From Glycera tridactyla (lineage: Eukaryota), in NCBI GenBank assembly GCA_965644265.1, contig OZ286462.1:7068001-7132000 (forward strand): DNA of 64,000 bases, read 5' to 3'. This document shows, in pieces, positions 4,653-64,000 of this stretch (position 1 is the first letter of the stretch; the number at the start of each line of letters is the position of its first letter). Below the pieces are notes generated by a model, which worked only from the letters and a program-made list of their open reading frames with translations, did no database searches and was not told the DNA's origin. Made by a program: the position numbers and the translations under genes.

Positions 4653-6534
4653 CTACAAGTTCAAGTCAGGCCAGCTAGCACTCAGTGGGAAAATACCCTC
4701 AAAATATCAATGAAACGAGGTACAAATAAGATTGGTCAATGGTCAGCCCGGCAGCTAAGATGAGGACGTAATGAACAATGTTGATAATCCTGGGGCTGTA
4801 CATGAGGTTTGCTAGGGTAGGATGGTTGAGTATAATGATAGAAAGAAGAGCGGGGTGTACACTAGTCATGAACAAGCAACGCCGATGTTCTTCCCTGAGT
4901 GAAACGCCCAAAGCTGCTCTCTGGATATAACCCTATAACCAGGGATGTGCTTGGCTCACAACCAAAAACCCTGAAAACCTGACCGGAGGCACATTTCACC
5001 ATGACTTTGCACACCAAGAAACCCCACAACTGCTGATTAATGGCTACTATAACTCCATGTGAACTCTGTGCTCTATCTCCACTAATACTGGTCCCATTTT
5101 CATGATATAAAACCCCCAAAAAAAAGCATAAAATGCTTTTCTCTGTCATATGCATGGATTGCTGGATTTGTTATCAAAAACCTGGAAATCCGTGGAAATA
5201 TTACATCCCTGTATAACATGGTATCTTCAAAGATCACATGGCACCAAGAGCAAACCCACCACATGGGGTTATTATTATCTACTTTCTGAGTTTGATATCT
5301 CTGCGTGGAATACATAGTAAAATCACATTTGACAATACAAGAAGCAATGAACAAAAACTCATGGAGTCCTGACACAATAATAAACAGCTCCACGTGTTCT
5401 GGTCCACAGTATCAAGAGTGAAGAATTTTATGAATAGCTCCTGTGACCCTGACCTTTAACCTATGATCACATGCCTCAAGGGGAAGGTGTCCAACCATTG
5501 CATTATTTCAGTTTGGCCTCCTGTAGCCTTTACCTTAGCCCTTTGGGCACAGAAATCAAATTTCAAAATACAATTTTTATATAGATGAAAGTTTGAAAGT
5601 TTTTTGAAAATTTGACCATCCAATCCAAGGTTAATGCTGAGGAACTGATAGAAACATCACTCAAAAGGACACAGAGGACACAGAGGTTAATGAAATATGT
5701 GCAGATGGACATACAAACAAACTTAACAACATGGTTTAAAATGGTGAGCAGGGCTGCACCTTGACAGGGTGACCAAAATGTGTAAAAGGTTCACCACAGA
5801 ACACCAGACCTGCACCATGAGAGATCCACGGGATCTGCACACCTGACAGAGGAGATGTGTCTCTGTGGAGATGACCTCTGAACTTCACCTCTCAAATCAC
5901 CCAGATGGGAGCGATACATGACTTTAGACAGTGAAAGTGACTGTGATGTGCTTAGCCCATGCAGTCAATCCGGTGTTTGTGGTTGAATACTCCTCGGGGA
6001 GATGAGAAAGGCTCAGATCTGAAAAAGCCTGCCAAGGAATGTAATTGTAAAGTCAGGAGAATATGTTGAAAATGCCTGACTGTGAAGTACTATATTTACA
6101 TCTTTTGATGTGCGCACCACTATTAGGGTGATATGGATGTACTGGACTTGCCGATTCAGAGATACATTCAATGTCAGAAGCTGCATGGGTAGGTAATAAA
6201 AGCACCGGCAATTTCAAAGTTCATGACATTTTGATATACCAGGATATGGCTTGCCATCTTTGCCACACTTAGCAAATAATCTTTTTTTTCTTCTCAACTT
6301 CAGGTTTGGTCAAATTATATTCAAGAGGTTTTGATCATATTGTTTGTTCATGAGCACATTTGTTCACCTGAACAATTATCCTTGTAGGCAGTTAGTTGCT
6401 TCAGAAAGAAAGAGGATATATACATGTATAGGAAAACATATTGCCTGGTCAGAATGACAGGTGGTCCTAGTGTGATGGTAATCATGCAAAGCAAAGAGTA
6501 AAACGCAGCAAGCAGGAGCCGAACTCATACAAAC

Positions 6535-24729: not shown

Positions 24730-27555
24730 TAAGGTTTTAGACTTGTTCTTGGAACGCAGTTTTGCAGAGTTATTACGAGAACTTAAAGTCGTAAAGATCT
24801 GGGTGGTTGACCCAGTCCTTCCTTAGGCGCATGCTGTATCCTCTGACAGGGCATTCCATTCTCTGATCACCTGAAGTGCCTGATGATACAGAACAAGAGG
24901 GCAACATTGATGATGAGGGTGAGGAGGATGGTTCGCTTGAGGGCCTAGATATTCACCCATCAGGAGCCGAGTCATATTTGAAAGAATCTGAGGAGGAGTT
25001 TGGTTTGCTGTCACGCACAGCCAGAACAGAACATTCAAAAAAGTTTCTATACTCCACTGCTAATGTTCAGCCTAAGAAACTCGTTTTACCAGGGGGTAAA
25101 GATGTGGCTTCTGAGTCAAAGACTGTATCCATGTTGGAGAGATTTTTGCAGTCTCAGTCAGCTCCTGTCAAAAACCAGAATATGGGGACATCCAGTTTTG
25201 AGAAATATTTCTTTAGTGTCCCTACATTTCGAGGAGAGAAACCAGATTTCGCTTTTGAACTTGATGCTCAACAGGTAGCAATTATCCAGCAATACTGGCG
25301 CCATAAAAATCCAACAAAACTCACAGCTTTCTCAGAAGAATCTAAGAAAATTCTTCGCGTTGAAGAAAATTTCTTTGATCTGACAAAAGTTCTCCAAATT
25401 GATGAATTCATCAGATTTGTTAATTCTGATAAGGGGACAGTAACAAAAGAGGGTATGCACAGTGCTATGTGGTCGAACTGGGAAGCTGATCTGCGTCGAG
25501 TACACACGGGGGCAAGGATAGGCACAGTTGTTCACGGTTACTCAATAGAGTTTGCTCAGATTCCAAATTTCAACAGAATCAGATACACAAAAGTGCAAAA
25601 CGAAGCTGCAAGAGAGTTAATGCACACAGGAATTCAAAATCTGTTGAGAAGAAAGGCAGTAGAAAGAGTACAGCCAAGCATGTGTTTGGACGGGTATTTC
25701 AGTACACTCTTTCTAGTGCCAAAGAGAAATTCCTCCCAGATGTGTCCAGTGATAAACCTAAATCCTTTGGATCAGTTTGTGGTAAAAAGGCATTTCAAAA
25801 TGGATCATTTGGCGGTGGTACTAAAAGCTGTGAGTCCCGGAGATCGGGCAGTGACAATAGCCTTGACAGATGCATATCTATATATGCCCATCAGACCGGC
25901 CCACAGAAAATATTTCAGATTCGCACTGAACGGAAAAATCTTTCAGTTCAGGGCTCTACTGTTTGGTCCAACCGGAGCTCCTCGGGTGTTTACAAAGGTA
26001 GTGGGAGCAGTGGTTCAACACTTCCATCAATAAGGGGTGAAAATATTGAAATATCTGGACGAATGGCTCATCTACGGCCCAGATCCAGTGTCAGTGCTAA
26101 AAATGAAGGATATAACAGTGCACCTGATAACAAGTCTGGGGTTTCTTCCGAATTGGAAGGAATCAGAACTCAATCCCACACAGCGCATCCAATGTATTGG
26201 AGAGAATCTTCAATTAGATCAGGGACGAGCAATGGTCCCAATTGACAGATTTTGTCATCTGTCAGATCTAATCGAAACATTGATTCAGAAGTCTCTGGTG
26301 ACTGCTTACGATATTCTCAGGTTGTTGGGGAAAATGGCAGCAGCAATACAGGTAGTGCCATTTGGGCGCCTTCGAATGAGGCCAATACAGATTTTTCTGT
26401 CATATCAATGGAGGCCTCAAAAATAGTCCATATGGACGCAAATTCCATTAGACCCATTGGTTGTTCCCCACATAAGATGGTGGCAAAAGAAAGAGAATGT
26501 TCTCAAAGGAGTATCACTGAATATTTCAGGCCCATCAGATATGATTGTGACATGTGATGCATCCAATCAGGGATCCCAATCAGTGCAAGGGACCTGGTCC
26601 AATCAAGAGAAAATGTGGCACATCAATGTGAAGGAGATGGGGCTGTGCTTTGGACTCTGAGACGATTCCATACTCAGATTCAGAATCATATGATTCTGAA
26701 ACGATCAGACAATATGGGAGTAGTAAGATATCTGAACCGCCAGGGGGGAACACGCTCTCCAACTCTGTGTGTGAAGACTTAGGAAGCTTTCCAGTTAGTG
26801 ATAGGCCTGAATTGCTTGATCATGGCAGCAGGACGCTTGAACCAGTGGGCAGATTGCCTGTCCAGAAGGAAGGTCCTTCCAACAGAATGGTCTCTGAACA
26901 GGGAAGTGGTGATGCAAATATTTCACTGGTTCGATTGTCCATTGATAGATCTGTTTGCATCAGCTTGGAACCACCAGTTACCAACATATTGTGCAAGGAG
27001 CAGGGACCCGGGAGCCTGGAACCTAGATGCTCTATCTGTGGCCTGGGACAGAATGTTTGCATATGCATACCCTCCAATATGTCTGGTGCCGAAAGTGCTA
27101 CAGAGGGTACAATTGTTCGAAACAGTGGTGATACTAATTACACCTTTTTGGCCGCAGAGATCGTGGTTTCCACTACTGCTCAGTCTCCTAGTAGATGTTC
27201 CATTGATTCTACCAGAGGGGGCAGACCTTCTGTCTCAGCCACAGGGCAAGTTCTCCCACCCAGACCCCGGTCTGTTCCATCTCACAGCATGGAAGGTGTC
27301 AGCCATTCCTTCAATGAGAGGATTCTTGAGAGAACTCACTCTTTGGTGGAAGCAGCCAGAAGGGAAGGTACAAGGAAAGTTTATTCCAGCAAATTCAAGA
27401 AATGTGTTGATTGGTGTGACAGATGGAATAAACATCCCAGGCATACAACTGTAGAAGATCTAGCTGATTTTCTGAGTGATTTACATGATGAAGGCCTTGC
27501 TTATAATACTATTTGCGGGTATCGGTCTATGCTTTCTTCCCATCATCCACCAGTT
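24730..27555 (+). mobile_element. DIRS-type retrotransposon A, left part (gag remnant, RT, RNase H, methyltransferase-like domain, YR N-terminus), degenerate
   Basis: RT motifs FLVPKRNSSQMCPVINL, YFRFALNG..QFRALLFG and YLDE; RNase H TCDASNQG and HINVKE; MT-like DLFAS...YAYPP. Contains a stop at 26031 and frameshifts. The left boundary is approximate. Confidence 0.9.
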
Positions 27556-28942
27556 TGAAGGGTGGTTTTTGGGCACACCTTCTAGGCCAGACAAAACTCT
27601 TGTATGAAATACATACTACACTTTAATGACAGGACACAAGTCCACAGTCAGTGCAGGGATAGCTCCTGATGGAGATGTTGTCAGGTTGAAGACCAAAGAG
27701 CGAAGACAATGGGTGAGCAGCGTCACCCAGTTTAGTCAATCAGCCAGGCCACATCAGAGCATCAGCAAACTACACATGCATGTTCCATGGCATGGAAATA
27801 TCAACAGCTTAACTATAACTTCATATGGTTACAAAGATGTTCAACAACAAAGCAGATGCAAAAAGGGATGTTAAATGAAATGACATCAATAATCAAGGAT
27901 GTATAGGATGAGTAGAGTAAGAAAACATACAGTATGAATTAACAATATAAAGGTATTTATCAAGGGTGGTATGGATAGAATAGGGAGAATTCCATATGGT
28001 AGGAACATGACTGCATGAGCAAGGTTGGAGGAGTTGGAGGTGGGGATAGGGGTGGGGGTGGTCATGGGCAATTATCAGTCAGGTACAGAGCTAAAGAAAG
28101 GCTAGAGTGGTAAGTTTTCATGGACAATAAGGGGATGTCAAACAATGGGTTGTAAACATGGCTGTTGAGTCCGCCATAATGCAACTTATGCAAGAGTGGA
28201 TACATTTGGAGTGGAGGAGAACACAACAGAGCAGAATTGACTTTTAACAGGGACTTCCTGGTTGTAGTCCACGTGGTGGGAAACATGTATGTTGTACATG
28301 TATATGTATGAGACTGACTGACTGAAACACAGGCTAGGCCTATCTCATTTTTCCATTGACAGACAGACAGACACACAGACAGACAGACATACAGACAGAC
28401 ACACATACTGTAGGATGGGAGTGATTGGTTGGTGGCCGGTAACTGGCTGGTAAATTGATTGATTGCTTGATGGTGGATGATGGATGACTAGATTGATTGA
28501 TTGATGACTTGACTGGTGGATTGATTGGTGGTGAAGGATGATGACTGGATTGATTGATGGTGAAGGATGATTGACTTGACTGATTGATGGTGGATGACTT
28601 GAGTGATCATAGGTGATGGATCTCTTGATTGATTTATGAATTTATCATTATATTATATGACTGTTGAAGGGATGGATGAATGACTTGATTGATAGACGAA
28701 TGCGATTGGATATATTGGGTATAGCTGATGGATGAATTCATTGATTGATGGATAAGTTGATTGATTGATTGATTGGCAAATGATATTGGTTGATAAATGG
28801 TAGATGACTTGATTGATTGATGGATGAATGAGTTGCATGATGACTTGCTGGATGATAGATAGTGATCAGGGTAGATGATATAATTGGCTGTGAAACGAAT
28901 GAATAGTTGTTGGGATAGACACACGTCAAAAATACGATTACA
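27556..28942 (-). repeat. 3' LTR (1387 bp)
   Basis: Direct repeat of 44359-45745, about a dozen substitutions by eye; rich in GATT/GACA microsatellite. Confidence 0.92.
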
Positions 28943-30529: not shown

Positions 30530-33474
30530 TTAATCTCCAGGGACAGACTTCTTAAGCAGCACTTTCAGGCCCTTGAGAGTATTTGATGCCCGAATATCAG
30601 GGGTAGATCTGTTCCAATACTGTACACCTCGAACACAAAAGTTGTCATCACAGAAGTGTAGTCGGGTCTTAGGCCTGACAAGTAGCTTTTTCTGTGAGAG
30701 TGAGCTGCTGTACCGTGTAGGAGCACCGCTCAGTCGTGCGGTCGCAAAGTTAAACAAACAATGTTATTACTATTGAGATATCGAAAAACTTCAATAATTG
30801 TATTGGCACGTCTGGTATCTTTAAGACAGGGTATTCCAAGGTTGGCATGGAGGTCAGTGGCGGAGTAATTCCAGCCGCTCTCACATATGGCACTTAAACA
30901 GCGGTTTTGCGCCACCTGGAGCCTAGATGATAAAGAGTTGGAGCAAGAATCGTAAACATAATCAAGATAAGTGAAGAGGGGATCGATCAAATTCTTATAG
31001 AGAAAAAGTGCCGTGTCCTTATTGATTGATGGGCGAAGATGATATAGGGCTCTTCTTCTGAAATTCACTTTTCTGAGTAGATATTCAATGTGGTGTTTAA
31101 ACGTAAGGGCCGGGTCAAGCTGAACACCAAGATATTTGTACTTGTCCACCTGAGTTACATGCTGGTCACCATATCTGATGTGCAGCTGCCTACATCTTAG
31201 GAGGCGTTGCTCTGTACCAAATAACATAGCATTAGACTTACTAATATTGAGTGTGAGCTTTCTGGCTCTGAACCATTTGGATATATGAACAAGGTCCAGA
31301 TTTAGTTTTGATTCTATATCATCTACGCTCTTCCCAGAGACAAGTAAGGCCGTGTCATCTGCATACAAGAATGGGGATGAAAATTCTAAACAATCACTGA
31401 TATTGTTAACATAAAGGATGAACAACAAAGGACCTAAGATGGAGCCTTGTGGGACCCCGTAGCTAATTCTTAATTCAGATGAGATTGTGTTGCCAATTCT
31501 GGTAGACTGAGTTCTGTCAGAGAGATAAGAGGAGATCCAGGCTAAACTTGAGGTACCAAAGCCAATACGTTCCAGTTCCTTGACAAGCAAGATATGGTCC
31601 ACGGTATCGAACGCTTTCTTCAGGTCCAGGAAGAGGACGCCACCAACATGTCCCCTGTCCGCCCCCTGGTAGATCCTATCCAGGAGGCTGACAAGGCACG
31701 TGCCAGTGGAGAAACCCTTCCTGAACCCGAATTGAGCAGGGTTTAACAGATTGTGGGAATTTACATAAGTTGTGATTTGCTCATGAGCAACTTTCTCCAT
31801 AAGTTTGTCCAGAATGGGCAAGAGAGATATCGGCCTAAAGTTACCAAAGTCACTAGTTGTTCCACTCTTGTGAATCACTGTGACGAGAGCACGCTTCCAT
31901 GCCAACGGAAAAGTATTGGACTGGATTGACAAGTGATAAATATGGGCAAGGATGGGACTAATAACTTGGGCAGAAATCTTTGGAAAATAGCTGGTGATTT
32001 CATCTAAGCCTGAGGATGAGGAACTGCTTAAATCAAGTATATACTTCACAATGTCATGTCGTGAGACGTCAGATAATACGAATTGACGTTCTGGTGCAAA
32101 AAGGACTTCCTGGTTGGTACATTCAGTATCCTCGACTGGTTCAATGAGATCAGCTAGTTTGGCGCCTATCTCGGTAAAATATTTGTTTACTGCTTCCGCC
32201 ACTGGGGTATGAGTTGAATCTTCAACATCAGGGGGAAAAGTAGGCAAGACAGGAGCTTTCTGAGTAAGTGGCCAGAAGCGTTTGAGCTCCTTCCATAATC
32301 TTTTGCTGTCATTGCATGCATCTTTCAAACAATTTGAGATATAAGATCTCTTGAGCTTCTTTTTCAAGCGATTCTCGATTCTCAGAGATTCCCTTTTCAT
32401 GGCTTTGTTGAAATCTGTAGGTTGGTCATTATTTACCTTGCTCCAAACCTCACAGTAGGCAATTGCGGCAATATATTCCGGTGTAACCCAGGGTTGGTGA
32501 TCAGTTTTACACATAACTTTCTTTTGAGGTGCATAAATATTCATGAGGGATACAAACGTGGCTGTGAAAGCATCGGCAGCAGAGTTCACATCTTCGGAGT
32601 CGAATACAGGACCCCAGTCCGAACTCTCAACATCATCAATAAAAGCATTGGGATCAAATTTCTTAAATGAGCGGAATAATATTTCATGCTTGTCAGGGGC
32701 TTTTTTTGAGCGACTACGGGCCATAAATACCAAGTGATGATCGCTGACACCTGGGTCAAGTTTGCCTGAGCGACAGTAATACTCAGGGCGGTTCACTGCT
32801 ACGTGGTCAATGCAAGTACTACTCCCTTGGGACACTCTAGTTGGGTCAGTGATGAGGTGTGTGAGGCCAAGCTTTTCACAGAAACGAGAATAGGACTTCG
32901 TTTTATGGCAATCAGTTTTCAAAATGTCAATGTTCAGATCACCGACAAGGATAACATCTGCCGGGTGTACTAAGCTGGGATCTGTTATGAGAGATTCAAG
33001 GATATCTAGGGATCTGTTTACAGAGCCATCTGGTGGTCTGTATGTGAGAAAGTAGTGGGTAGGTCTTGCTTTATATAGATGAAGTGTGAAGCATAATATT
33101 TCAACATCAGGTGTGCATTTGCATAAGGACTCATTCAGAGAAATGTCGTACTGAGACTGGTAGTAAACAAGGAGACCACCTCCACCAGTTTTACCACTAG
33201 CAGGTGTTCGGTCAAATCTATGAAAGCGATAGCCAGGTATGCAAAGCTCTTCATCACTAATGGATGGGTTCAGAAATGTTTCGCAGAGACAGAGTAGATC
33301 CAATTTACTGAGTAGAAGTAAACTTGAAATGTCATCTGATTTCCTTGTCAGGCTTTGTATGTTGATACAAGCACTGGCAATGCCAGGCAGGTTTGACAGT
33401 GCCATGGAGCAGTGCTCATGGTCACTGAATGATTCGATGAGTGGGAAGGTAAATTTATTCTTTCTCGGGGACAT
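30530..33474 (-). CDS. LINE ORF2, apurinic endonuclease + reverse transcriptase (one frameshift near 30760)
   Basis: APE motifs LCETFL, GDLNID and SDHHLV; RT motifs QFGFRKG, FLDLKKAFDTV, GVPQGSILGPLLF and YADDT. The main frame stops at 30730 and the C-terminal tail continues in another frame to 30530. Confidence 0.92.
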
Positions 33475-35619
33475 GGCAAACCTTTCACTGGTATTGAAAG
33501 AGTGGTATACAGTGACAGGAAGTTGAGCATAAAAGATAATGTGAGTAAGTATATGGGGAGAGCAACCCAAGAGGACGTAGACAGAACATTGGGACTTGAA
33601 AATACAGCATTTGAGGCCACATGCGGCTAAGCGAAAATTTGACTGCTTCGGGCTAGATGTAATTGAAGGGCGACACCTAGCAAAAAGCTGGCACAGGACA
33701 TAGGAAGGTTACAATGCTAGGGGCAGGGTGTGATTACATAGTGACAATGACCAAGCGTCATGACTGCCCTCTAGCGTGAGTTCCGGCGGTGTGCATATCA
33801 CCAAGAGTGCTTGTAATTCTTGAGAATGGAGACTGAAGTCACCATTACAGACTATTGTAAGATGGCTGAAATACCTTCAGATGGTCACTCACTTGTAGAT
33901 AGGTAGCAAAAAGACATAATTAAATGATCAAAGACAAGCCTGACAGGCAGCGGATAATGGCTCTATTGTGATATATAATGAGGTACATAGATGGTCAAAC
34001 GATTGACTGACATGCCACACTTGCATGGAAGATTCAGTTACGGATAATCATTTTGGACAATACACTGCAGTAGACATGCAAAATCACAATGATGAGGACG
34101 TAGGTTTGGCATTGTTAGGTGCAACTCCTTGACAGGAGAAGTATTCATGGCAACTTCAGTACAGGGCAAAGACATACAGCAGGGAGAGGAAACATACCAC
34201 AGGTTAATAGAGTCTGTCGAGAAAACAGGAATAATCAGAGATTTCATCTAGTTGTCCCTGGGACAATAACATGTACACAGCTTATATTGAATAGAGGCAT
34301 GATCGAAGTCATGAGAAACAATTGAATGACAATCCCTAGATCACTGAGAGGAGAGGAGTGATAATGCAAAAGAAGGCCCCAATTTATAATTGAGGGTGTG
34401 ATTGCTGGTACATTGTCGGCCCTGCAGAGACTGAGTTTACAGATCCGGATTGCTCTGTTAGATACCAGCGATTGTCATCTATTTAATTGCCTTCGACAGA
34501 GACAAGAATAGTGTGCTAGCACCAATGAAATGAATATCCCATGAGATATGCCAAGAAGCAAGAGAACAGTTACATCATTCGGATTCAAGAGACCTTGGTA
34601 GGGATGGGTGGTGTATGTAAGTGATGTGTAATAGTGGTTCAAATAGATAAGGTAGGCACCAGAAAACAGATTGGGTTGTAGCATATGCCCAAGGTAACAA
34701 GTATGTAATATATTGCAGATCTACATCAGTAAGCAGGATATCACTAGCCGAGTAATCAAAATCGTTTACCCCATATATGATAGAGACAAAGTACATAATG
34801 CATATAAATGATCGAGGGTTCGTCAGTAAGCATTCAACAAAAGAGTACATAATAGGTGAAATCAATAGACAAGTAAATGAGCAAATAGAAGAAACAGAAA
34901 TTTAGTCCGTAATATGCAGGTAAATGAATAAATAACTAAATGTGTAAATAGGTAAACAAATTAATAAATCAATGGTTGACCCGATTCCGCCATGTGTAAA
35001 TGCACCTCACAAGCTTGATACCCAGTTTTTCAGAGCTTTATCCTGGCAGACAAGGTCATGTGAGGATAGATACCAGGCAGTTAGGCATACGTGGCATACA
35101 CGGTCATGCACACATTAATTCAAACAAGCACACCATAGGCAGAAAGACACACATGATCTATGATCAAATAACAGGAATTGGTCACATGATGGAATCCAAG
35201 AGACACCAGAAAAGCACCAGATGATCTTCAATAATCACAGAACTACCCACAAGTAAGACAAATTGAGCATGTCCTAAAATTGATTGCATTGAAATAAAAA
35301 CCATATTTCTCAAAGACCTGTAGTGTAGCTAATAGATATGAGGAGTTACCGCTAGGGCGACATGTTTGACATGAATAATGAAATCAAAGTCCAAACTATC
35401 ACCTTCTTAGAGGCAATGATGGTGGCATATGTATACATATCTGGGACAGCTAGAGAGAGAAAGTGTGAGATGAAGGTGTCGGCATGTAGCTGGAGTAGTG
35501 GTAGAGGCAGCGGCCTTGGTGTGGTATGAAGGGTAGATGAAATGTCATGCGTGTGCCGCCAGAGCGCATATGTGCCTGCGAGTGTTGGTGATTTGTGAGT
35601 AAAGAATATATTGGCGTGA

Positions 35620-38520
35620 TTACTGGTGCCAAGAATTTTGTGGTACATGGGTCTGAGGGTTCTGATTCATATTGAATGATTGTTGCTGGAAGTTGCTGTT
35701 TTGCTTATTACCAGATTGCCAGGAGGGGGGAGGGGGTCTTGTTGGACAAAAACCTCCATTGAGAGGAAGTGACATGAGAGCAGGGATGAAAGGTGGGGCA
35801 TTAGGTTGAAGTAAACTGTGATTGAGTGGACGAGGAGGGGGTTGCTGAGATTGATAGAAGCTGTAGTCATTCCAATGTGGGTTCTGGTTTTGAAACTGAT
35901 TCTGGCCTTGAATTGGATTGTTAAAGGTGTAAGAGTTACTCCAATTCGGATTATGATTGTGAGATTGAAGAGGATTGGCAAGGTTAAAAGGAGGTACTGG
36001 CGGCATTTGTGGCGGTTGGTGTTCCGATGCATGCGGTACCTGCGGGGCAGGGCAGGGGGCGGGGGTGACAGGGGTGGTTGCCTGCTGAGGTAGTATATCA
36101 TGAGTTGGTTGGACCACCTGCTCATGCTCCACATTTAGTGGAGGTGCGACATTATCAGTGGCAGTGACAGGATTTCCTTCACCTGGATGGTGGGTGGGGC
36201 CATTTTCAATCTTTTTATTGACTGTTTGGAGGATTCCACTTGTTACAACCTCTGGTTGACTGCCATAACCTCTTGTTGCCCAGATGACGCCGTCGTGGGT
36301 CCAAACTTTATTGAACACTCGACTGCGTCTGGCTTCACGAGCCTGATAGAAAAGTGCATTTTGGTTTGAAATCAAATATTCCTTCACAAAAATGTGAGAC
36401 CCACGGAAGGAGCCCTTGCGTTTCATGATTGCTCTCTTTATATCAACATCTTTAAACTTAATTAGCACAGGTCGCTGGCGTCTGCCATGTCTGCCAACAA
36501 AAGAGCATTTGATCACATCCCTTTCAGAAATAGTCAAACCAGTTTTGTCATTTAATGCATAAAGAACATTTTCAGTGATGGAAAAATAGGGGTTCATGTC
36601 AACCCCTTCTACCAACAAACAATTCAATCTCTCAGACATTTCGAGATTGTCAAATCGCCCTTCCCCTCGATCAAGACGACTTTCAGTTGTTTTGATGAAA
36701 TTGTGTACCAGAGATTCAAGTTTAGTGACTTGATCAAGGATACTTTCATTCATTACCACACCTTGCTGTGTCTGGGTGCTATGTGCTTGGTTTTCGGCAA
36801 CTGCAGTGGCATTTGAGGCTGTTGCGGTGGGAGGGGCAGCAGTTTGACGATGTGGGATTGACAACGACTTGACTTCCCTCTGTAAATGGACCACTTGGTG
36901 TTCAATCTTCGCCACATCTTTTGAGATTTCAGTTACCAGACTTTCACGGATGCGTGCTTCAGCAAGGTTAGTCTCTGATTTGATCACACCAAACATATTT
37001 TCATGCAGTTCACGACGAATACCATCTTTCAGTGATGTCAAAATGTGATCAGTAATGGTGAAGTCAGCCTGAGTAGAGGCATCTAGCTGAGATTGAGATG
37101 TGTACTGGGTTGAGGCTGACACTGAACAGCCAGAAATTTGTGATAAGTTATGTTCTTGGACAGAGAATTGGCTGGGCAAGGGGCTACGAGAAGGACTGCC
37201 TTGGCCTGGTGGTATGGGAACAGAAGACTCTATGGAGAGTGATGAAGGAGAGGTAGCGTTATCTCCAATGTTGGTGTTTTCAACGAATTCCATCATCGTG
37301 TTACTAATGTCGGAAAGTGCGCCTACATCATCAGGTGATTTGCCACCCGCCATGTCAGCTTGACCAGCAGAGGTAACACTTAATTGCGTGTCCTCACTTC
37401 GGTCAACAGCTGTTGAAATGGACTCGTCGGGGCATGACAATAGCGAGGGGAGTGAAACACATGATTGCTGGTCACTCTGTGGAGGTGAAGTGGAGTTCAT
37501 ATTCAGGCGTTTGGGACTACTAGATTCAGTAGTTGAGTCAGGTGAACCCCTAGCACGTTTACGAACAGGTGTGTTGCTAGTGCCGGTAGCAGAAAGATCT
37601 GAATGTGAGATAGGCGGGTCCAATAAGTTGACATATGGGTCATCTGCCTTATTTGGTGATAGTTGTGAGAGTATAGGATGTCTCCTACGATGACGTATCG
37701 GTGTGTTGATAATCACTACACTGCCATCAGATGTATAGCCCGATAGATCTTGGGAAGATGCCGCGGCGCCGGCAGCCTCGAAAACAAAAGGGGGCGGGGC
37801 ACCATCCATGCTGGGTAATTCGGATTCTTGTAGGAAAGTGATAACTGATGGTACTTCAGTTTCAGGCATTACACTAGTTGATGGATTCACAGGATCACCA
37901 TCACGTTTGATGTGTAGGTAGTTAAATTCCAGTTTTTTGATGACAACACTAGTAGGTTTAGGTAATTTCAGATCCTCATTCTTGAGTGGGCGGAGAGGAG
38001 ACAATTGGCGTACATCATCGGGTAGTAGAGAAGTGGCATCTTCACTACATAGTGGCGGTAAAGAAGACTGAGTCACTGAGACAGTGGCAGCACTGGAGAT
38101 GTGTTCAGGGACATTGACACGTAATGGTAGGAGAGAAGAGTTAACAATTTTAACACCACTATCACTGGCGAAACTATTCTGGGCATTCTGGGCACCTAGC
38201 ACCGATCGTAAGTCATTTGTAGCAACAGTGGAGATTGAACGTTTCCTAGACAAATGCTGCAAGCCTCCATGATTAGACGAGCTTACGCGTGTCGGCGTGT
38301 GCGGGAGGCAGTCACCCGTACCCTGCTCGCTAGACTGGGGGAGGTCACAAGTGTCTCTAGGGCTTGATGTCGGTGACTGGGTAGCAACAGGGTAAACAAA
38401 CCCAATATCACCCAACGATTGTTCATTAGGGCTGGTGAAAAAGGAATTGAACGAGAGAGAATTGAGAAAGTTCCCACGACCCAACCTACGTCTCCCGGGG
38501 TTCTTGAGTATCTTATCCAT
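35620..38520 (-). CDS. LINE ORF1 (966 aa; coiled coil + RRM-like ORF1 core, long disordered arms)
   Basis: DNLEMSERLNCLLVEGV...RPVLIKFKD...IFVKEYL...VWTHDGVIW is the ORF1 core typical of CR1/L2-group LINEs. Uninterrupted ORF. Confidence 0.85.
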   Translation of the reverse strand: MDKILKNPGRRRLGRGNFLNSLSFNSFFTSPNEQSLGDIGFVYPVATQSPTSSPRDTCDLPQSSEQGTGDCLPHTPTRVSSSNHGGLQHLSRKRSISTVATNDLRSVLGAQNAQNSFASDSGVKIVNSSLLPLRVNVPEHISSAATVSVTQSSLPPLCSEDATSLLPDDVRQLSPLRPLKNEDLKLPKPTSVVIKKLEFNYLHIKRDGDPVNPSTSVMPETEVPSVITFLQESELPSMDGAPPPFVFEAAGAAASSQDLSGYTSDGSVVIINTPIRHRRRHPILSQLSPNKADDPYVNLLDPPISHSDLSATGTSNTPVRKRARGSPDSTTESSSPKRLNMNSTSPPQSDQQSCVSLPSLLSCPDESISTAVDRSEDTQLSVTSAGQADMAGGKSPDDVGALSDISNTMMEFVENTNIGDNATSPSSLSIESSVPIPPGQGSPSRSPLPSQFSVQEHNLSQISGCSVSASTQYTSQSQLDASTQADFTITDHILTSLKDGIRRELHENMFGVIKSETNLAEARIRESLVTEISKDVAKIEHQVVHLQREVKSLSIPHRQTAAPPTATASNATAVAENQAHSTQTQQGVVMNESILDQVTKLESLVHNFIKTTESRLDRGEGRFDNLEMSERLNCLLVEGVDMNPYFSITENVLYALNDKTGLTISERDVIKCSFVGRHGRRQRPVLIKFKDVDIKRAIMKRKGSFRGSHIFVKEYLISNQNALFYQAREARRSRVFNKVWTHDGVIWATRGYGSQPEVVTSGILQTVNKKIENGPTHHPGEGNPVTATDNVAPPLNVEHEQVVQPTHDILPQQATTPVTPAPCPAPQVPHASEHQPPQMPPVPPFNLANPLQSHNHNPNWSNSYTFNNPIQGQNQFQNQNPHWNDYSFYQSQQPPPRPLNHSLLQPNAPPFIPALMSLPLNGGFCPTRPPPPSWQSGNKQNSNFQQQSFNMNQNPQTHVPQNSWHQ

Positions 38521-38769
38521 AGTATCGCATCAGGTCGAATCTCCAGAGATATCCCAAAGCCACTAAATAAACGACAAATGCTCTCCCCTTCTCACAGGTG
38601 TTACTCAGCGTCGGCCATGTTAAATCCATTTGAAGTCATGTACAGCTCAGTAGCACTGGTGGCCCGGATATACACAATGCAGGCAGGGTAAAATTGAATG
38701 ATGAAGTTCACGTAGCACATCCGGCACACGGAGCAGACGATGCAGGTCGCAACAACACAGCAACCGGAA

Positions 38770-44358: not shown

Positions 44359-45745
44359 TGAAGGGTGGTTTTTGGGCACACCTTCTAGGCAAGACAAAAC
44401 TCTTGTATGAAATACATTCTACACTTTGATGACAGGACACAAGTCCACAGTCAGTGCAGGGATAGCTCCTGATGGAGATGTTGTCAGGTTGAAGACCAAA
44501 GAGAGAAGACAATGGGTGAGCAGCGTCACCCAGTTTAGTCAATCAGCCAGGCCACATCAGAGCATCAGCAAACTACACATGCATGTTCCATGGCATGGAA
44601 ATATCAACAGCTTAACTATAACTTCATATGGTTACAAAGATGTTCAACAACAAAGCAGATGCAAAAAGGGATGTTAAATGAAATGACATCAATAATCAAG
44701 GATGTATAGGATGAGTAGAGTAAGAAAACATACAGTATGAATTAACAATATAAAGGTATTTATCAAGGGTGGTATGGATAGAATAGGGAGAATTCCATAT
44801 GGTAGGAACATGACTGCATGAGCAAGGTTGGAGGAGTTGGAGGTGGGGATAGGGGTGGGGGTGGTCATGGGCAATTATCAGTCAGGTACAGAGCTAAAGA
44901 AAGGCTAGAGTGGTAAGTTTTCATGGACAATAAGGGGATGTCAAACAATGGGTTGTAAACATGGCTGTTGAGTCCGCCATAATGCAACGTATGCAAGAGT
45001 GGATACATTTGGAGTGGAGGAGAACACAACAGAGCAGAATTGACTTTTAACAGGGACTTCCTGGTTGTAGTCCACGTGATGGGAAACATGTATGTTGTAC
45101 ATGTATATGTATGAGACTGACTGACTGAAACACAGGCTAGGCTTATCTCATTTTTCCATTGACAGACAGACAGACACACAGACAGACAGACATACAGACA
45201 GACACACATACTGTAGGATGGGAGTGATTGGTTGGTGGCCGGTAACTGGCTGGTAAATTGATTGATTGCTTGATGGTGGATGATGGATGACTAGATTGAT
45301 TGATTGATGACTTGACTGGTGGATTGATTGGTGGTGAAGGATGATGACTGGATTGATTGATGGTGAAGGATGATTGACTTGACTGATTGATGGTGGATGA
45401 CTTGAGTGATCATAGGTGATGGATCTCTTGATTGATTTATGAATTTATTATTATATTATATGACTGTTGAAGGGATGGATGAATGACTTGATTGATAGAC
45501 GAATGCGATTGGATATATTGGGTATAGCTGATGGATGAATTCATTGATTGATGGATAAGTTGATTGATTGATTGATTGGCAAATGATATTGGTTGATAAA
45601 TGGTAGATGACTTGATTGATTGATGGATGAATGAGTTGCATGATGACTTGCTGGATGATAGATAGTGATCAGGGTAGATGATATAATTGGCTGTGAAATG
45701 AATGAATAGTTGTTGGGATAGACACACGTCAAAAACATGATTACA
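44359..45745 (-). repeat. 5' LTR (1387 bp)
   Basis: Direct repeat of 27556-28942, followed on the minus strand by the PBS-like sequence. Confidence 0.92.
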
Positions 45746-45749
45746 ACTT

Positions 45750-46640
45750 GAAGGAATGGCTGTTGGGGCTCACCCTCTGATTTCATCAGTTATCAAAGGG
45801 GTGTTCAATACTAATCCTCCTCAAAAATCATTGTTTCCCAGTTGGGATGTAAATGTGGTGTCAGAGTTCCTTGCTAAGGACCCTATGTTTCCATTAGAGT
45901 TGTGTTCAATGAAATATCTAAGCTGGAAAGCTTGTTTTCTAATAGCATTGGTGTCTTTCAGAAGGGCTGATGATATTTCTAAACTTTCAGTGGTCAATAA
46001 CAAATGTGTCATCACATCTGAGAAAGTTATTCTGATCCCTGATGCTTTGCTCAAGCAAGATAGACAATCGCATTTCTGTGTACCAATTGAAATAGAATCA
46101 TTTCAGGATAAAGCTTTGTGCCCAGTATACACACTGAAAACCTACTTGGAAAGGATTGAGCCATGCAGGGGTGGTATACAAAGTCTTTTTGTGACAATGA
46201 CAAAACCATATCATAAACCTACAGCACAAACTATCTGTAGATGGATTGTTGACACTATCAAGTCAGCTTATGAAAGAGATTCCCAAGATTTGGGAGAAGT
46301 CACAGGCCATTCTTGCAGGGCTTTAGGCCCTTCCTTTGCTGAATGTAAGGGGTTGTCGGTGCTAGACATTATGCGAGTGGCTGATTGGGCATCATCAAAC
46401 ACATACATCAATCATTATAGAAGATGCATGACTGATGTTTCTTCTGTTTTGCTCTCTTGCAGAAGCTCTAACCAGTAGAGCGGATTCATGCTCTAGATAG
46501 TGTATCTACGTTGTCTACTAATATTGAATTTACTGGAGGGTCGACGAAGACCTAGAAGATTAACATCCTGGGGAAGGAATTACTAAGATACAAATTTGGT
46601 GAATCTATATTTTGGATATCACGAGGTGACCACATCTAGG
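45750..46640 (+). mobile_element. DIRS-type retrotransposon A, right part (tyrosine recombinase C-terminus + 3' end)
   Basis: ORF 45756-46478 has FRRADD (R), GHSCR (HxxR), ADW and HY catalytic positions. It continues in frame from HHPPV (27555) to EGMAVGAHP (45750). The right boundary is approximate. Confidence 0.9.
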
Positions 46641-61105: not shown

Positions 61106-61859
61106 GCATGTGAAGCCTTTTTTTCCATCTTTGTTCTTGTGGTTATTTTATTGGAGCTGTTTTGCTTCCACAAAGAAAGTGTTTTGTTGATGGTTATCCT
61201 CGCATTTGAATATATGTGCCGTTGAACCTCAACACAACCAAACCAATCTGTGAGGTCACATTATAAAGTGTTTCGTGACATTCTGAAGGTTTATTATGCC
61301 CTTGCTTGTTTTGTTGTGATGGCATTCCAGTGTTTTTGAACCAGTCAATNNNNNNNNNNNNNNNNNNNNNNNNNNNNNNNNNNNNNNNNNNNNNNNNNNN
61401 NNNNNNNNNNNNNNNNNNNNNNNNNNNNNNNNNNNNNNNNNNNNNNNNNNNNNNNNNNNNNNNNNNNNNNNNNNNNNNNNNNNNNNNNNNNNNNNNNNTT
61501 CGTGCGTGTGTGTGTGTGTCCGTTGCATCCAGAGAGGGGACATGGGTGCCTTTCATACATTCTGTTACCTATGGCCCCATTCCACGGCAATCAGGGGTCA
61601 TTATCCTTCACTACGCTGAAGGGTAGGGCTTAGAATGCAGTTCCTGGCTACTGACTGGGACTGCTCACGATTTGAATAGACTGACATGATTAATGGCAGT
61701 CATAAAACTTCGAAGCCTGCGTGTGAACCCCACTGATTCCTCCTTATTCCTCTCGTGCTCACGGGACTCGCACACGTTTCTACTTAGCTCCCGCTAAAAC
61801 ACGGTTTTGAGCAAGTTTTCGCACGAATTCTCAAGTTTTTTCACGAACTTTTGACACGA

Positions 61860-63674
61860 ATGGATAACGAAAGTACTACGCCGGCCATTGGCGAACGCCA
61901 CGAGCCTGCACAACAACAACCTTCAAGAGATCAAGATACGGACTTACAGAGGCCAGAACTGGCTTCTGACGCTGGAGAAAGGGGAAGAACTTCCCCAGCT
62001 TCTTCATACAGAGCGGAATCGGAACCGATTTCCCCTAATCCCGGCAGTATGGATTCGAGAAGCCGTGACTCCTTTGCTCGAACGAGGGATTTCTTCGGAC
62101 GGGCCCCGTCTAGAATGCCGCCCCCGAACTTGGGATATTACGAGCCAGCCTGGTCGCAAAACAGCTCCTTCACGCCAGGACATTGTGCGGGAGGAAGTTT
62201 TGGCCAGTTTCCATATCGATTTGGCCCCCAAAATGGCGATTTCAGGCGACAAGATGGATGGAATAGCGGCGATGTTTATTCGAGCAATCCCGGGGCTAGC
62301 GGCCATGTTGGATTCGCACCTCCTTCCTCGAGTGAGCAGGCCGGAAGTGGCGGGAACCCCTTACTTCCGGTGCGAAACGATAGCGAGGCTTGGCCTCGTT
62401 CTGGATTCAAAATGGCGGCGCCCACGCAGCAGCTTCCGAACCGAGAAAGTTCCAGTTTCACACGGAATACGACAAATCTGGCCGGTTTGCGAAGAGATCT
62501 CGGCCTCGAAAGGTATGATACATCCATACAGAACTTATCGGATAAAGTGAACAACCTGGTCGAGCTCTTATCTCGTCGGGAAAGGCGAAACAGTGGCGCA
62601 AGCGTGGGCGATAATAGGTCAACTAGTCGACACAGCCATCGCTCCGTTTCTCCTCTCTCTCGACGCTCCTCCCCACCTGCTTCCCCTTCCAGGGCTTCAG
62701 ATAAAGGCTCTGAACCAGGGGAAATCCTGGATGCCTCCCTTGATGAGGAGGAGGGTTTGGCGGATGCAGTAGCAGACTCTTGTGACATTTCTGTACCTAA
62801 CAACACCTCCCAGGATAGGTGGGGTGCGGCCTTTAAGAGGCCCAAGGTGGGAAAGGAGATAGAGGAGGGACTGGCTGAGTTTGTGGCGAACACATGTACC
62901 AAGGAACCGGATACAGAGTTCTTAAAATCAGTATCAGAGAAACATCTGATGCCGTCAAACACCAAGGTGGCCTGTTGCCCCACTGTGGACAAGTTAGTCT
63001 GGCGGAAACTCGGGACTAAGGGCAGGAGCTTTGACCTATCCATTCAGGACGTACAGAAAAAGATGATGCCGGCGCTGTACTCCACCATCTCGGCGCATGA
63101 ACTGGCGGGTAGACTCCGCAGGAAATACCCGGAGGACCCCGACCTCGAAACCCTAGAGGAGACTACGAAGGAGAGCGTCTACCTTCTGGGTCATGCCTCC
63201 TTTGTAGCATCACACACACGCCGGGAGAATGCACGCTTTATCTTCAAGGATGAGTTCAAGGAGCTGTGTAACAAGGGACGCCCCCCCAGTGAGGACCTGT
63301 TCGGTAAAGACTTCTCCAAGGACTGTAAGGAACTAGAGGAGAAGGCAGCAGCAACGAAGAAGGCCTTTGACGCCAGAGGCCATAACACGAGCCAATCATC
63401 TGGAAATGGTGGCAGCGGCAACAGTAACAACAACAACAACTCAGGGAAGGGCCGTCAGGGAGGCGCCAACTCCTTTCGGAATGACTCAGGGGGGAAGTGG
63501 AACAGAAAGAGATCAAACTACAGTCAACAGTCGCGCCGCGGTGGGGGCACCCCATACAACAAGGGCAAAGGGGGCCAAAAGGACGACAATCGCACCAACA
63601 AAGGTTCCAACAACAGCGGCAACACCAACAACTACAACAACAACAACAGCAACAGCTATGACTCAAAAAACTAG
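61860..63674 (+). CDS. DIRS gag-like ORF1 (about 604 aa)
   Basis: Intact ORF with first ATG at 61860. Central block PSNTKVACCPTVDKLVW...DLSIQDVQ...LFGKDF resembles invertebrate DIRS ORF1. G/N/R-rich C-terminus. Confidence 0.8.
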   Translation: MDNESTTPAIGERHEPAQQQPSRDQDTDLQRPELASDAGERGRTSPASSYRAESEPISPNPGSMDSRSRDSFARTRDFFGRAPSRMPPPNLGYYEPAWSQNSSFTPGHCAGGSFGQFPYRFGPQNGDFRRQDGWNSGDVYSSNPGASGHVGFAPPSSSEQAGSGGNPLLPVRNDSEAWPRSGFKMAAPTQQLPNRESSSFTRNTTNLAGLRRDLGLERYDTSIQNLSDKVNNLVELLSRRERRNSGASVGDNRSTSRHSHRSVSPLSRRSSPPASPSRASDKGSEPGEILDASLDEEEGLADAVADSCDISVPNNTSQDRWGAAFKRPKVGKEIEEGLAEFVANTCTKEPDTEFLKSVSEKHLMPSNTKVACCPTVDKLVWRKLGTKGRSFDLSIQDVQKKMMPALYSTISAHELAGRLRRKYPEDPDLETLEETTKESVYLLGHASFVASHTRRENARFIFKDEFKELCNKGRPPSEDLFGKDFSKDCKELEEKAAATKKAFDARGHNTSQSSGNGGSGNSNNNNNSGKGRQGGANSFRNDSGGKWNRKRSNYSQQSRRGGGTPYNKGKGGQKDDNRTNKGSNNSGNTNNYNNNNSNSYDSKN

Positions 63675-64000
63675 TTTGTCCCGGCACAGGCCCAGCCGGA
63701 TCACTGGGCCGCAATATCCAGGCTTGGCACCAGGTCACCTCGGATCCCTGGATCCTGGACACTGTCTCAGGATATACGCTGGAACTGGGGGAGGATCCAT
63801 TTCAGGACTCTCCGAGGATCACCCCAGTCCCTCGGGATCCAGGCCGACGTGCCCTGGTGCAGGGGGAAATCGACTCCCTCCTCGAAAAACAGGCAATCAC
63901 ACCCGTGGACTACCACCCCCTGGAGTACATCTCGACGATCTTTTTGGTGGAAAAGAAGTCCGGGGGGCAGAGGCCAGTTATCAACCTCAAATATCTGAAC
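63662..64000 (+). CDS. DIRS RT ORF, N-terminal part (-1 frame relative to gag, no ATG in window)
   Basis: 113 open codons with RT N-terminal motifs, overlapping the gag stop by 13 nt. Not in the ORF track because it has no start codon. Confidence 0.88.
63665..63710 (+). promoter_or_regulatory. Putative -1 ribosomal frameshift signal (A AAA AAC + H-type pseudoknot)
   Basis: Heptamer 63665-63671 in the gag frame. Stem 1 CCGGC (63681-63685) / GCCGG (63695-63699); stem 2 GGCCCA (63689-63694) / TGGGCC (63705-63710). Confidence 0.7.

Follow-up and report, generated by a model that had tools for sequence, protein, structure and literature searches.

The window, the whole 64,000-nucleotide stretch of DNA analyzed here, ends on its plus strand inside a retroelement whose left terminus (61598 to 61776) lies near an assembly gap at about 61350 to 61498. 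This terminus aligns with the left inverted terminal repeat of the relative L001 (about 515 to 660 of that locus). Downstream is a gag-like ORF1 of 604 amino acids (61860 to 63674), which starts with the ATG at 61860 and ends Ser-Lys-Asn-stop, the last codons being TCA AAA AAC TAG. The gag frame contains UCC UUU CGG (63471 to 63479), a predicted +1 frameshift site leading into the recombinase frame, and the slippery heptamer A AAA AAC (63665 to 63671), which adjoins the gag stop TAG at 63672 to 63674. From 63662, an RT ORF is open in the -1 frame, its first 113 codons reaching the window edge at 64000, and a predicted H-type pseudoknot (63681 to 63710) starts 9 nt after the heptamer. The third frame, which is +1 to gag and -1 to RT, is open on the same strand from 63337 to the window end at 64000 and would be the start of a long recombinase ORF. 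The recombinase domain, RNase H, MT, and right end of the element lie beyond the window edge and were read from relatives.

ORF1 matched no Pfam family; its core is 36 to 42% identical to ORF1 of the relatives L001 to L003. No protease is present between gag and RT in the window element, and the RT motif begins 11 codons after the RT frame opens. The 113-codon RT piece had 32 homologues at an E value of ≤0.001, 29 of them with a precomputed PF00078 match and 3 of those also with PF05869. L002 has an RVT_1 domain (E value, 3e-25), an RNase H-type sequence, and a Dam-like match below the cut-off, and L001 has a Phage_integrase match below the cut-off (E value, 0.0018) with an HSTR motif. DIRS1-like elements have inverted termini with an internal complementary region, as does L001, in which positions 506 to 558 and 627 to 651 are paired in inverted orientation with 5556 to 5608 and 5719 to 5743; no direct repeats were found beside the inverted termini of L001. 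Given the matches of the RT piece, the domains of L001 and L002, the inverted termini of L001, and the leader that aligns with the left repeat of L001, the window element is most likely a DIRS1-like retrotransposon.

Other open frames and elements are present in the window. Two open frames overlap the N-terminal half of gag, one of 231 codons on the plus strand (61855 to 62550), which had no Pfam match, and one of 255 codons on the minus strand (62276 to 63043). A second, decayed DIRS-type copy lies at 24867 to 27558 on the plus strand, with partial gag-like sequence joined in frame to RT; after these, MT-like and recombinase-like frames overlap and contain stops. Motifs inspected by eye are the basis of this assignment. 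At 45741 to 46478 on the plus strand, a 245-codon ORF resembles the catalytic end of a DIRS-type tyrosine recombinase and has a GHSCR motif. On the minus strand, 30730 to 33708 and 35620 to 38529 make up what by eye is a LINE-like element, with a 992-codon endonuclease-RT-like ORF and a 969-codon ORF1-like ORF about 1.9 kb apart.

Relatives and families of the element

A metagenome scan confirmed 122 relatives, and the best 80 of the 122 were used for the analysis. The RTs of the four best of these 80 loci, L001 to L004, are 67, 62, 58, and 51% identical to that of the window element, respectively. L001 to L003 share one assembly prefix; they are distinct families, yet a single host may carry all three, and L004 is from a different source. 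Upstream in its gag, L003 carries an indel, and 57 gag codons are visible in L004. Searches of viral and prokaryote sequence collections returned no relatives of the element. With gag as the query, two word-based searches found no homologues, and the full hidden Markov model search, built on the four gag cores, alone recovered them (2,339 homologous proteins at an E value of ≤0.001). One protein of 369 amino acids, P0044, has the gag core joined to a recombinase-like C terminus and would come from an internally deleted or spliced element.

We clustered the window element and the 80 loci at 80%, which gave 36 families. A junction was called intact when gag had at least 200 codons, RT had at least 100, and the two overlapped, a rule set after a first view of the junctions; 21 of the 36 families were intact under it, and 15 were dropped. 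The five families with the heptamer at the gag stop, namely, those of the window element and L001 to L004, form one side of a branch with support of 92/83, which is not starred (L064 was left out as too short). The four closest families are joined by a branch with support of 96/85 in the same tree.

The junction of gag and RT

The earlier note had placed A AAA AAC directly against the gag stop, and the sequence there is exactly as claimed. Its description of the RT frame was likewise borne out: the frame is -1 relative to gag, the two share 13 nt, and the 113 codons before the window edge contain no ATG. An X XXY YYZ heptamer thus lies in the zero frame at a point where the downstream ORF is open in -1. 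In L001 to L003 the gag frame ends TCA AAA AAC followed by TAA or TAG, in L004 it ends GCA AAA AAC TAG, and RT is in -1 in all four; a heptamer with the stop at the junction is absent from the other 76 of the 80 loci. An 11-nt stretch at the slip site, TCAAAAAACTA, is invariant in the window element and L001 to L003, and L004 has GCAAAAAACTAG. Third-base identity among the window element and L001 to L003 ranges from 8/32 to 16/39, which means that synonymous sites are saturated, and only 8 of the 44 RT codons with an invariant amino acid have an invariant codon. By this comparison, the heptamer appears to be conserved beyond coding needs. In-frame canonical heptamers occur at 20 of 9,451 gag codon positions as background. 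That the heptamer has been kept at the stop despite saturated synonymous sites makes -1 frameshifting to a Gag-RT fusion very likely in the window element. The proposal of the earlier note, Gag-RT by -1 frameshifting in a DIRS element, is thus supported by a heptamer and stop kept in four diverged sister families.

The gag homologues carry evidence at the protein level. A Lys-Asn C-terminal end, as expected from a heptamer next to the stop, is found in 17 of the 150 best gag homologues (50% clusters) and in 7 of the top 13, compared with an internal Lys-Asn rate of 91 in 11,545 (0.8%). The 17 include the L001 and L004 families, and in three more of the top 13, Ser-Lys-Asn stands 1 to 3 residues before the end. 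Ser-Lys-Asn, like the Ser-Phe-Arg encoded at the upstream site, could also be a protein motif. As a separate observation, 4 of the 7 other intact -1 families (L009, L045, L046, and L070) carry an in-frame canonical heptamer in the overlap (U UUU UUA, G GGA AAA, U UUU UUC, and U UUA AAC) that lies 90 to 174 nt upstream of the gag stop, and -1 shifting may therefore be wider than the window clade.

The same junction was examined for other routes to RT. Expression from a spliced or subgenomic mRNA with an acceptor at or near the gag stop, the heptamer being incidental, could use CAG at 63687 to 63689, which follows a moderately pyrimidine-rich stretch (0.6). Against this, the families share no AG position or phase, none of the three joints listed for four runs touches the junction (contigs of guessed RNA status), and 11 invariant nucleotides would be left unexplained. 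The AG of the gag stop itself was ruled out as an acceptor, the stop being TAA in L001 and L003, so that this AG is not kept. Three contigs cross the gag/RT junction colinearly (records 5 and 6 of run X1 and record 20 of run X3, both runs represented by contigs only and their RNA status guessed), and no variant at the junction was among the 40 of 371 listed; with the joint and contig tables covered in part, this is weak evidence. We consider a spliced RT message very unlikely.

Reinitiation after termination, or a non-AUG start immediately downstream of the gag stop, is, in our estimate, less likely still. A TAATG stop-start in the RT frame in the group of L015, an RT-frame ATG 11 nt after the stop in L045 and L046, and a CTG 32 nt after the heptamer in the window element would fit such a start, but the heptamer would have no explanation, and each of the five heptamer families has near-cognate codons of its own, at positions of its own. 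The window element has no RT-frame ATG in its 113 codons, and the first one comes 56 nt after the stop in L001, 215 nt after it in L002, and 110 codons into RT in L004. Near-cognate starts, AG dinucleotides, and ATGs were compared among the five heptamer families, and none is shared. For the downstream AUG or spliced mRNA that the earlier note had named as refuting its reading, there is thus no start codon or acceptor AG common to the families.

The same Gag-RT fusion would arise if RNA polymerase II inserted an extra A into the run of six. In favor of this, C AAAAAA C is invariant and the structure after it lacks conservation; against it, the run is always phased X XXY YYZ in the gag frame, which slippage does not need, and no insertion at the site was present among the 12 of 18 listed. 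Six A's are also short for slippage by cellular polymerases. Transcriptional slippage is the least probable of these routes, and ribosomal -1 frameshifting on the heptamer is the reading that we carry forward.

In the X1 and X3 contigs, 99 nt at 62325 to 62425 are skipped, with ends CT..AC, which read GT..AG on the minus strand. Either antisense splicing or a simple in-frame deletion in a sister copy may account for this.

The earlier note had drawn a pseudoknot downstream of the heptamer, and it can form as drawn. Stem 1 pairs CCGGC (63681 to 63685) with GCCGG (63695 to 63699), stem 2 pairs GGCCCA (63689 to 63694) with TGGGCC (63705 to 63710), the loops are ACA and ATCAC, and both stems are perfect Watson-Crick helices. 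Of 366 canonical heptamers on both strands of the window, this is the one with a strict Watson-Crick H-type pseudoknot downstream, and such a structure arises by chance in 6 of 3,000 dinucleotide shuffles and at 7 of 6,501 positions in RT coding DNA. In an energy-scored pseudoknot search, the window structure was matched by 2 of 150 dinucleotide shuffles; synonymous recodings matched it in 10 of 150 cases, which ties some of the signal to the protein sequence encoded there. The nested fold of the region is unremarkable (z scores of -0.43 and -0.02), and the first G in the 3' arm of stem 1 (-9.0 kcal/mol for this stem alone) is also claimed by a competing 7-bp extended stem 2 hairpin (-14.5 kcal/mol). 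No Rfam family came near its gathering score in the region.

What did not hold is conservation of this form. For the window element and L001 to L003, RNAalifold gave a consensus of -0.49 kcal/mol with 2 pairs, and the covariation in stems 1 and 2 that the earlier note had proposed to look for was absent from these four aligned sequences. The main stems of L001 to L003 start 11 to 13 nt after the heptamer, outside the 5- to 9-nt range; their 3' arm consists of the Ala/Gly-Gly codons at the RT start and the sequence of the 5' arm differs, with the caveat that G-rich arms pair easily. L002 is the sole relative offering a pseudoknot, a different possible one with a stem 2 of 7 bp in another position, and L004 has no such stem and nothing notable downstream. 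Fold z scores for the five heptamer families are -0.02 (window), -0.24, -0.58, -2.33 (L003), and -0.20, the strong hairpin of L003 being the sole relative's fold better than shuffles. Two variant contigs of run X1 break off at 63713, the following one begins at 63684, and these contig breaks suggest that sister variants differ near 63683, inside stem 1. Basal stems of 4 bp, 4 to 7 nt after the heptamer in the four closest families, were found by eye and post hoc and were given no weight. With neither conservation nor consensus covariation, this pseudoknot has about an even chance of acting as the stimulator in the window element. Some 3' structure stimulating the -1 shift is plausible.

The upstream +1 site and the recombinase frame

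UCC UUU CGG, which the earlier note did not include, sits in the gag frame 66 codons upstream of the -1 site. At this site, 8 nt, TCCTTTCG, are invariant in the window element and L001 to L003. Within the last 80 gag codons, UUU CG occurs in the gag frame in 14 of the 21 intact families and in the other frames in none of the 21, against a background of 4 in 7,855 codons; it is absent from 7 of the 21. Phe-Arg pairs in this region are written UUU CGN in 14 of 24 cases, compared with an expected fraction of 0.31 (P = 0.005, a value that overstates independence because the families are related). The codon before UUU varies outside the window clade. The window site thus has YCC UUU CG in the zero frame, an open +1 frame, and conservation at the codon level.

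Such a shift would lead into the third frame, which is open for 175 codons in the window and is kept open by 59 of 5,000 synonymous recodings. In L002, it extends from before the +1 motif across 685 RT codons without a stop and into recombinase sequence, and it stayed open in 0 of 2,000 synonymous recodings. L001 has a third-frame stop 47 nt past the start of the RT motif region, and its RT carries a frameshift farther on. On these sequence grounds, a +1 shift into the recombinase frame is likely.

The main rival for the recombinase is splicing, because of donor-like sites at the junction. An AG/GTRAG site located between 80 nt upstream and 15 nt downstream of the RT Ala-Gly motif is present in 17 of the 36 families (for example, L004, L005, L039, L046, L059, and L077), compared with 15 of 209 background windows. 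In such a scheme, RT would be made by the -1 shift, splicing or an internal AUG would supply the recombinase, and Ser-Phe-Arg would be a protein motif only. Two ATGs in the window third frame (63406 and 63481) and the 10 of 24 Phe-Arg pairs with other codons could be read the same way. The window element and L001 to L003, by contrast, have no donor-like site at the junction; a protein motif would not account for UUU CG being frame specific (14, 0, and 0 of 21) with invariant codons, nor a separate message for the third frame of L002 being kept open over RT. We regard this scheme as unlikely, although it deserves more weight than the alternatives raised for RT, and we retain the +1 shift as the preferred route to the recombinase. 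Several families with a donor-like site (L004, L053, and L070) have neither UUU CG nor an open recombinase frame, which hints at a spliced gag-YR message there.

In 11 of the 21 intact families (L038, L048, L051, L059, L063, L072, L074, L077, L078, L079, and L080), it is RT that lies in +1. The overlap holds UUU CG in 9 of these and UUU CA in 2, and therefore the motif follows whichever ORF lies in +1. The base after the gag stop is C in 11 of 11, versus 1 of 10 in the -1 families. Past the stop, the gag frame remains open for 322 to 975 codons, and it is the recombinase frame in all seven families that could be assigned. This arrangement looks like recombinase synthesis by readthrough of the gag stop. 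The stop contexts include UGA CUA and UAG CAA CCA, which we take to be readthrough motifs, an assumption that a literature check did not confirm. Ten of the 11 families form one clade (support, 100/99) and are therefore not independent.

A further layout was observed in the family of L010 to L037, L042, L056, and L069, in which TAATG joins the gag stop to an overlapping RT-frame ATG about 104 nt before the RT Ala-Gly motif, suggesting that RT may be made by termination-reinitiation. Upstream in this family, CCT TTT CGT opens into the recombinase frame.

Known recoding signals and a scheme for expression

A AAA AAC is the -1 heptamer of mouse mammary tumor virus (MMTV), IAP, EIAV, BLV, and HTLV and is listed among the most shift-prone heptamers in mammalian ribosomes (PMC3835772; PMC5009743). 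The window element shares with retroviral -1 signals this heptamer and a compact pseudoknot of <35 nt, and the EIAV row (9, 5, 5, 4, 9, 0, with the column meaning inferred) resembles its spacer of 9, stems of 5 and 6, and loops of 3 and 5. It differs from retroviruses in that it lacks both a protease and a DDE integrase, and its RT begins directly behind the shift. Its minor-groove loop is 5 nt, compared with 7 to 14 nt in the compact betaretroviral and IAP rows, its pseudoknot has no wedge A, and the structure is not conserved between families. In Ty3/gypsy-type animal elements, pol is in -1 in 28 of 51, many with a heptamer (PMC5009743); these gag-pol frameshifts, and that of PEG10, involve one shift only. 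Pol in +1 is rare there (2 of 51), in contrast to RT in +1 in 11 of 21 intact DIRS families.

For the upstream site, the PLEKHM2 +1 signal UCC UUU CGG has a measured efficiency of about 1.3% (PMC11451614), and the YCC UUU CG sites of PA-X, PLEKHM2, and amalgaviruses give a shift of about 1% with no structure needed (PMC3498833; PMC11451614). The window site is identical to that of PLEKHM2 over 9 nt and one base from that of influenza PA-X, and L001 to L003 have the PA-X sequence UCC UUU CGU itself. Unlike in those cases, the window site lies in a retrotransposon gag, is followed in this clade by a -1 site on the same mRNA, and would feed an ORF that overlaps all of RT.

DIRS1-like elements are described as having gag, RT-RH-MT, and YR ORFs, with a long RT/YR overlap in half of 28 elements (PMC3266345; PMC9210276); the available portions of these papers describe the overlaps and give no translation mechanism or recoding signal. 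Programmed frameshifting has been proposed for Ngaro (Poulter and Butler 2015, quoted in PMC13003380), where, as quoted, it concerns a short -1 overlap of RT/RH and YR with no signal named, whereas the window case concerns the gag/RT junction of a DIRS1-like element. There is no mention of DIRS in the portions available of PMC5009743 and PMC8310308 and nothing on this mechanism in those of PMC3783388, PMC6681497, PMC7192593, PMC3950715, PMC12440569, and PMC3212892. In the open full-text literature, which does not include the main DIRS reviews, neither signal was found described for DIRS1-like elements. Priority is therefore uncertain, as earlier DIRS papers may already mention gag-pol frameshifts. 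Both types of signal are already known; what would be new is their occurrence in a DIRS1-like element, where, judging from their sequence, they are likely functional.

Taken together, the motifs, frames, open ORFs, and conservation seen in this analysis fit a scheme in which one mRNA of a DIRS1-type element probably yields three proteins by two programmed frameshifts. We infer both shifts from the cases measured in viruses and PLEKHM2. The majority of ribosomes would stop at the gag stop and make Gag. Others, a small fraction, would shift by +1 at UUU C (63474 to 63477) and enter the third frame. In an intact relative, this frame has no stop over the entire RT gene and leads at its end to the tyrosine recombinase, so that the product would be Gag-(long spacer)-YR. 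At the end of gag, some ribosomes would slip -1 on A AAA AAC and, after Ser-Lys-Asn, read Leu-Val-Cys in the RT frame to make Gag-RT-RNaseH-MT. The -1 slip is probably stimulated by a 3' structure, likewise inferred, which would be a compact pseudoknot in the window element and other stems in relatives.

It is somewhat more probable than the reverse that the DIRS1-like group as a whole runs on recoding, with an old UUU CG feeding whichever ORF is in +1 and a clade-specific second device reaching the remaining ORF. That device would be the -1 slip in the window clade, gag-stop readthrough in the clade with RT in +1, and stop-start reinitiation or splicing elsewhere. Group-wide recoding would explain why the recombinase frame is open across the whole RT gene, and it would account for the expression of three overlapping genes from one RNA in DIRS elements. 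If it holds, +1 and -1 programmed shifts act in series on one retroelement mRNA, and the active forms of RT and recombinase are fused to Gag and produced in fixed proportions. Many natural cases of the poorly understood PA-X-type +1 site would be gained, and the annotation of DIRS elements and the recognition of their functional copies would change.
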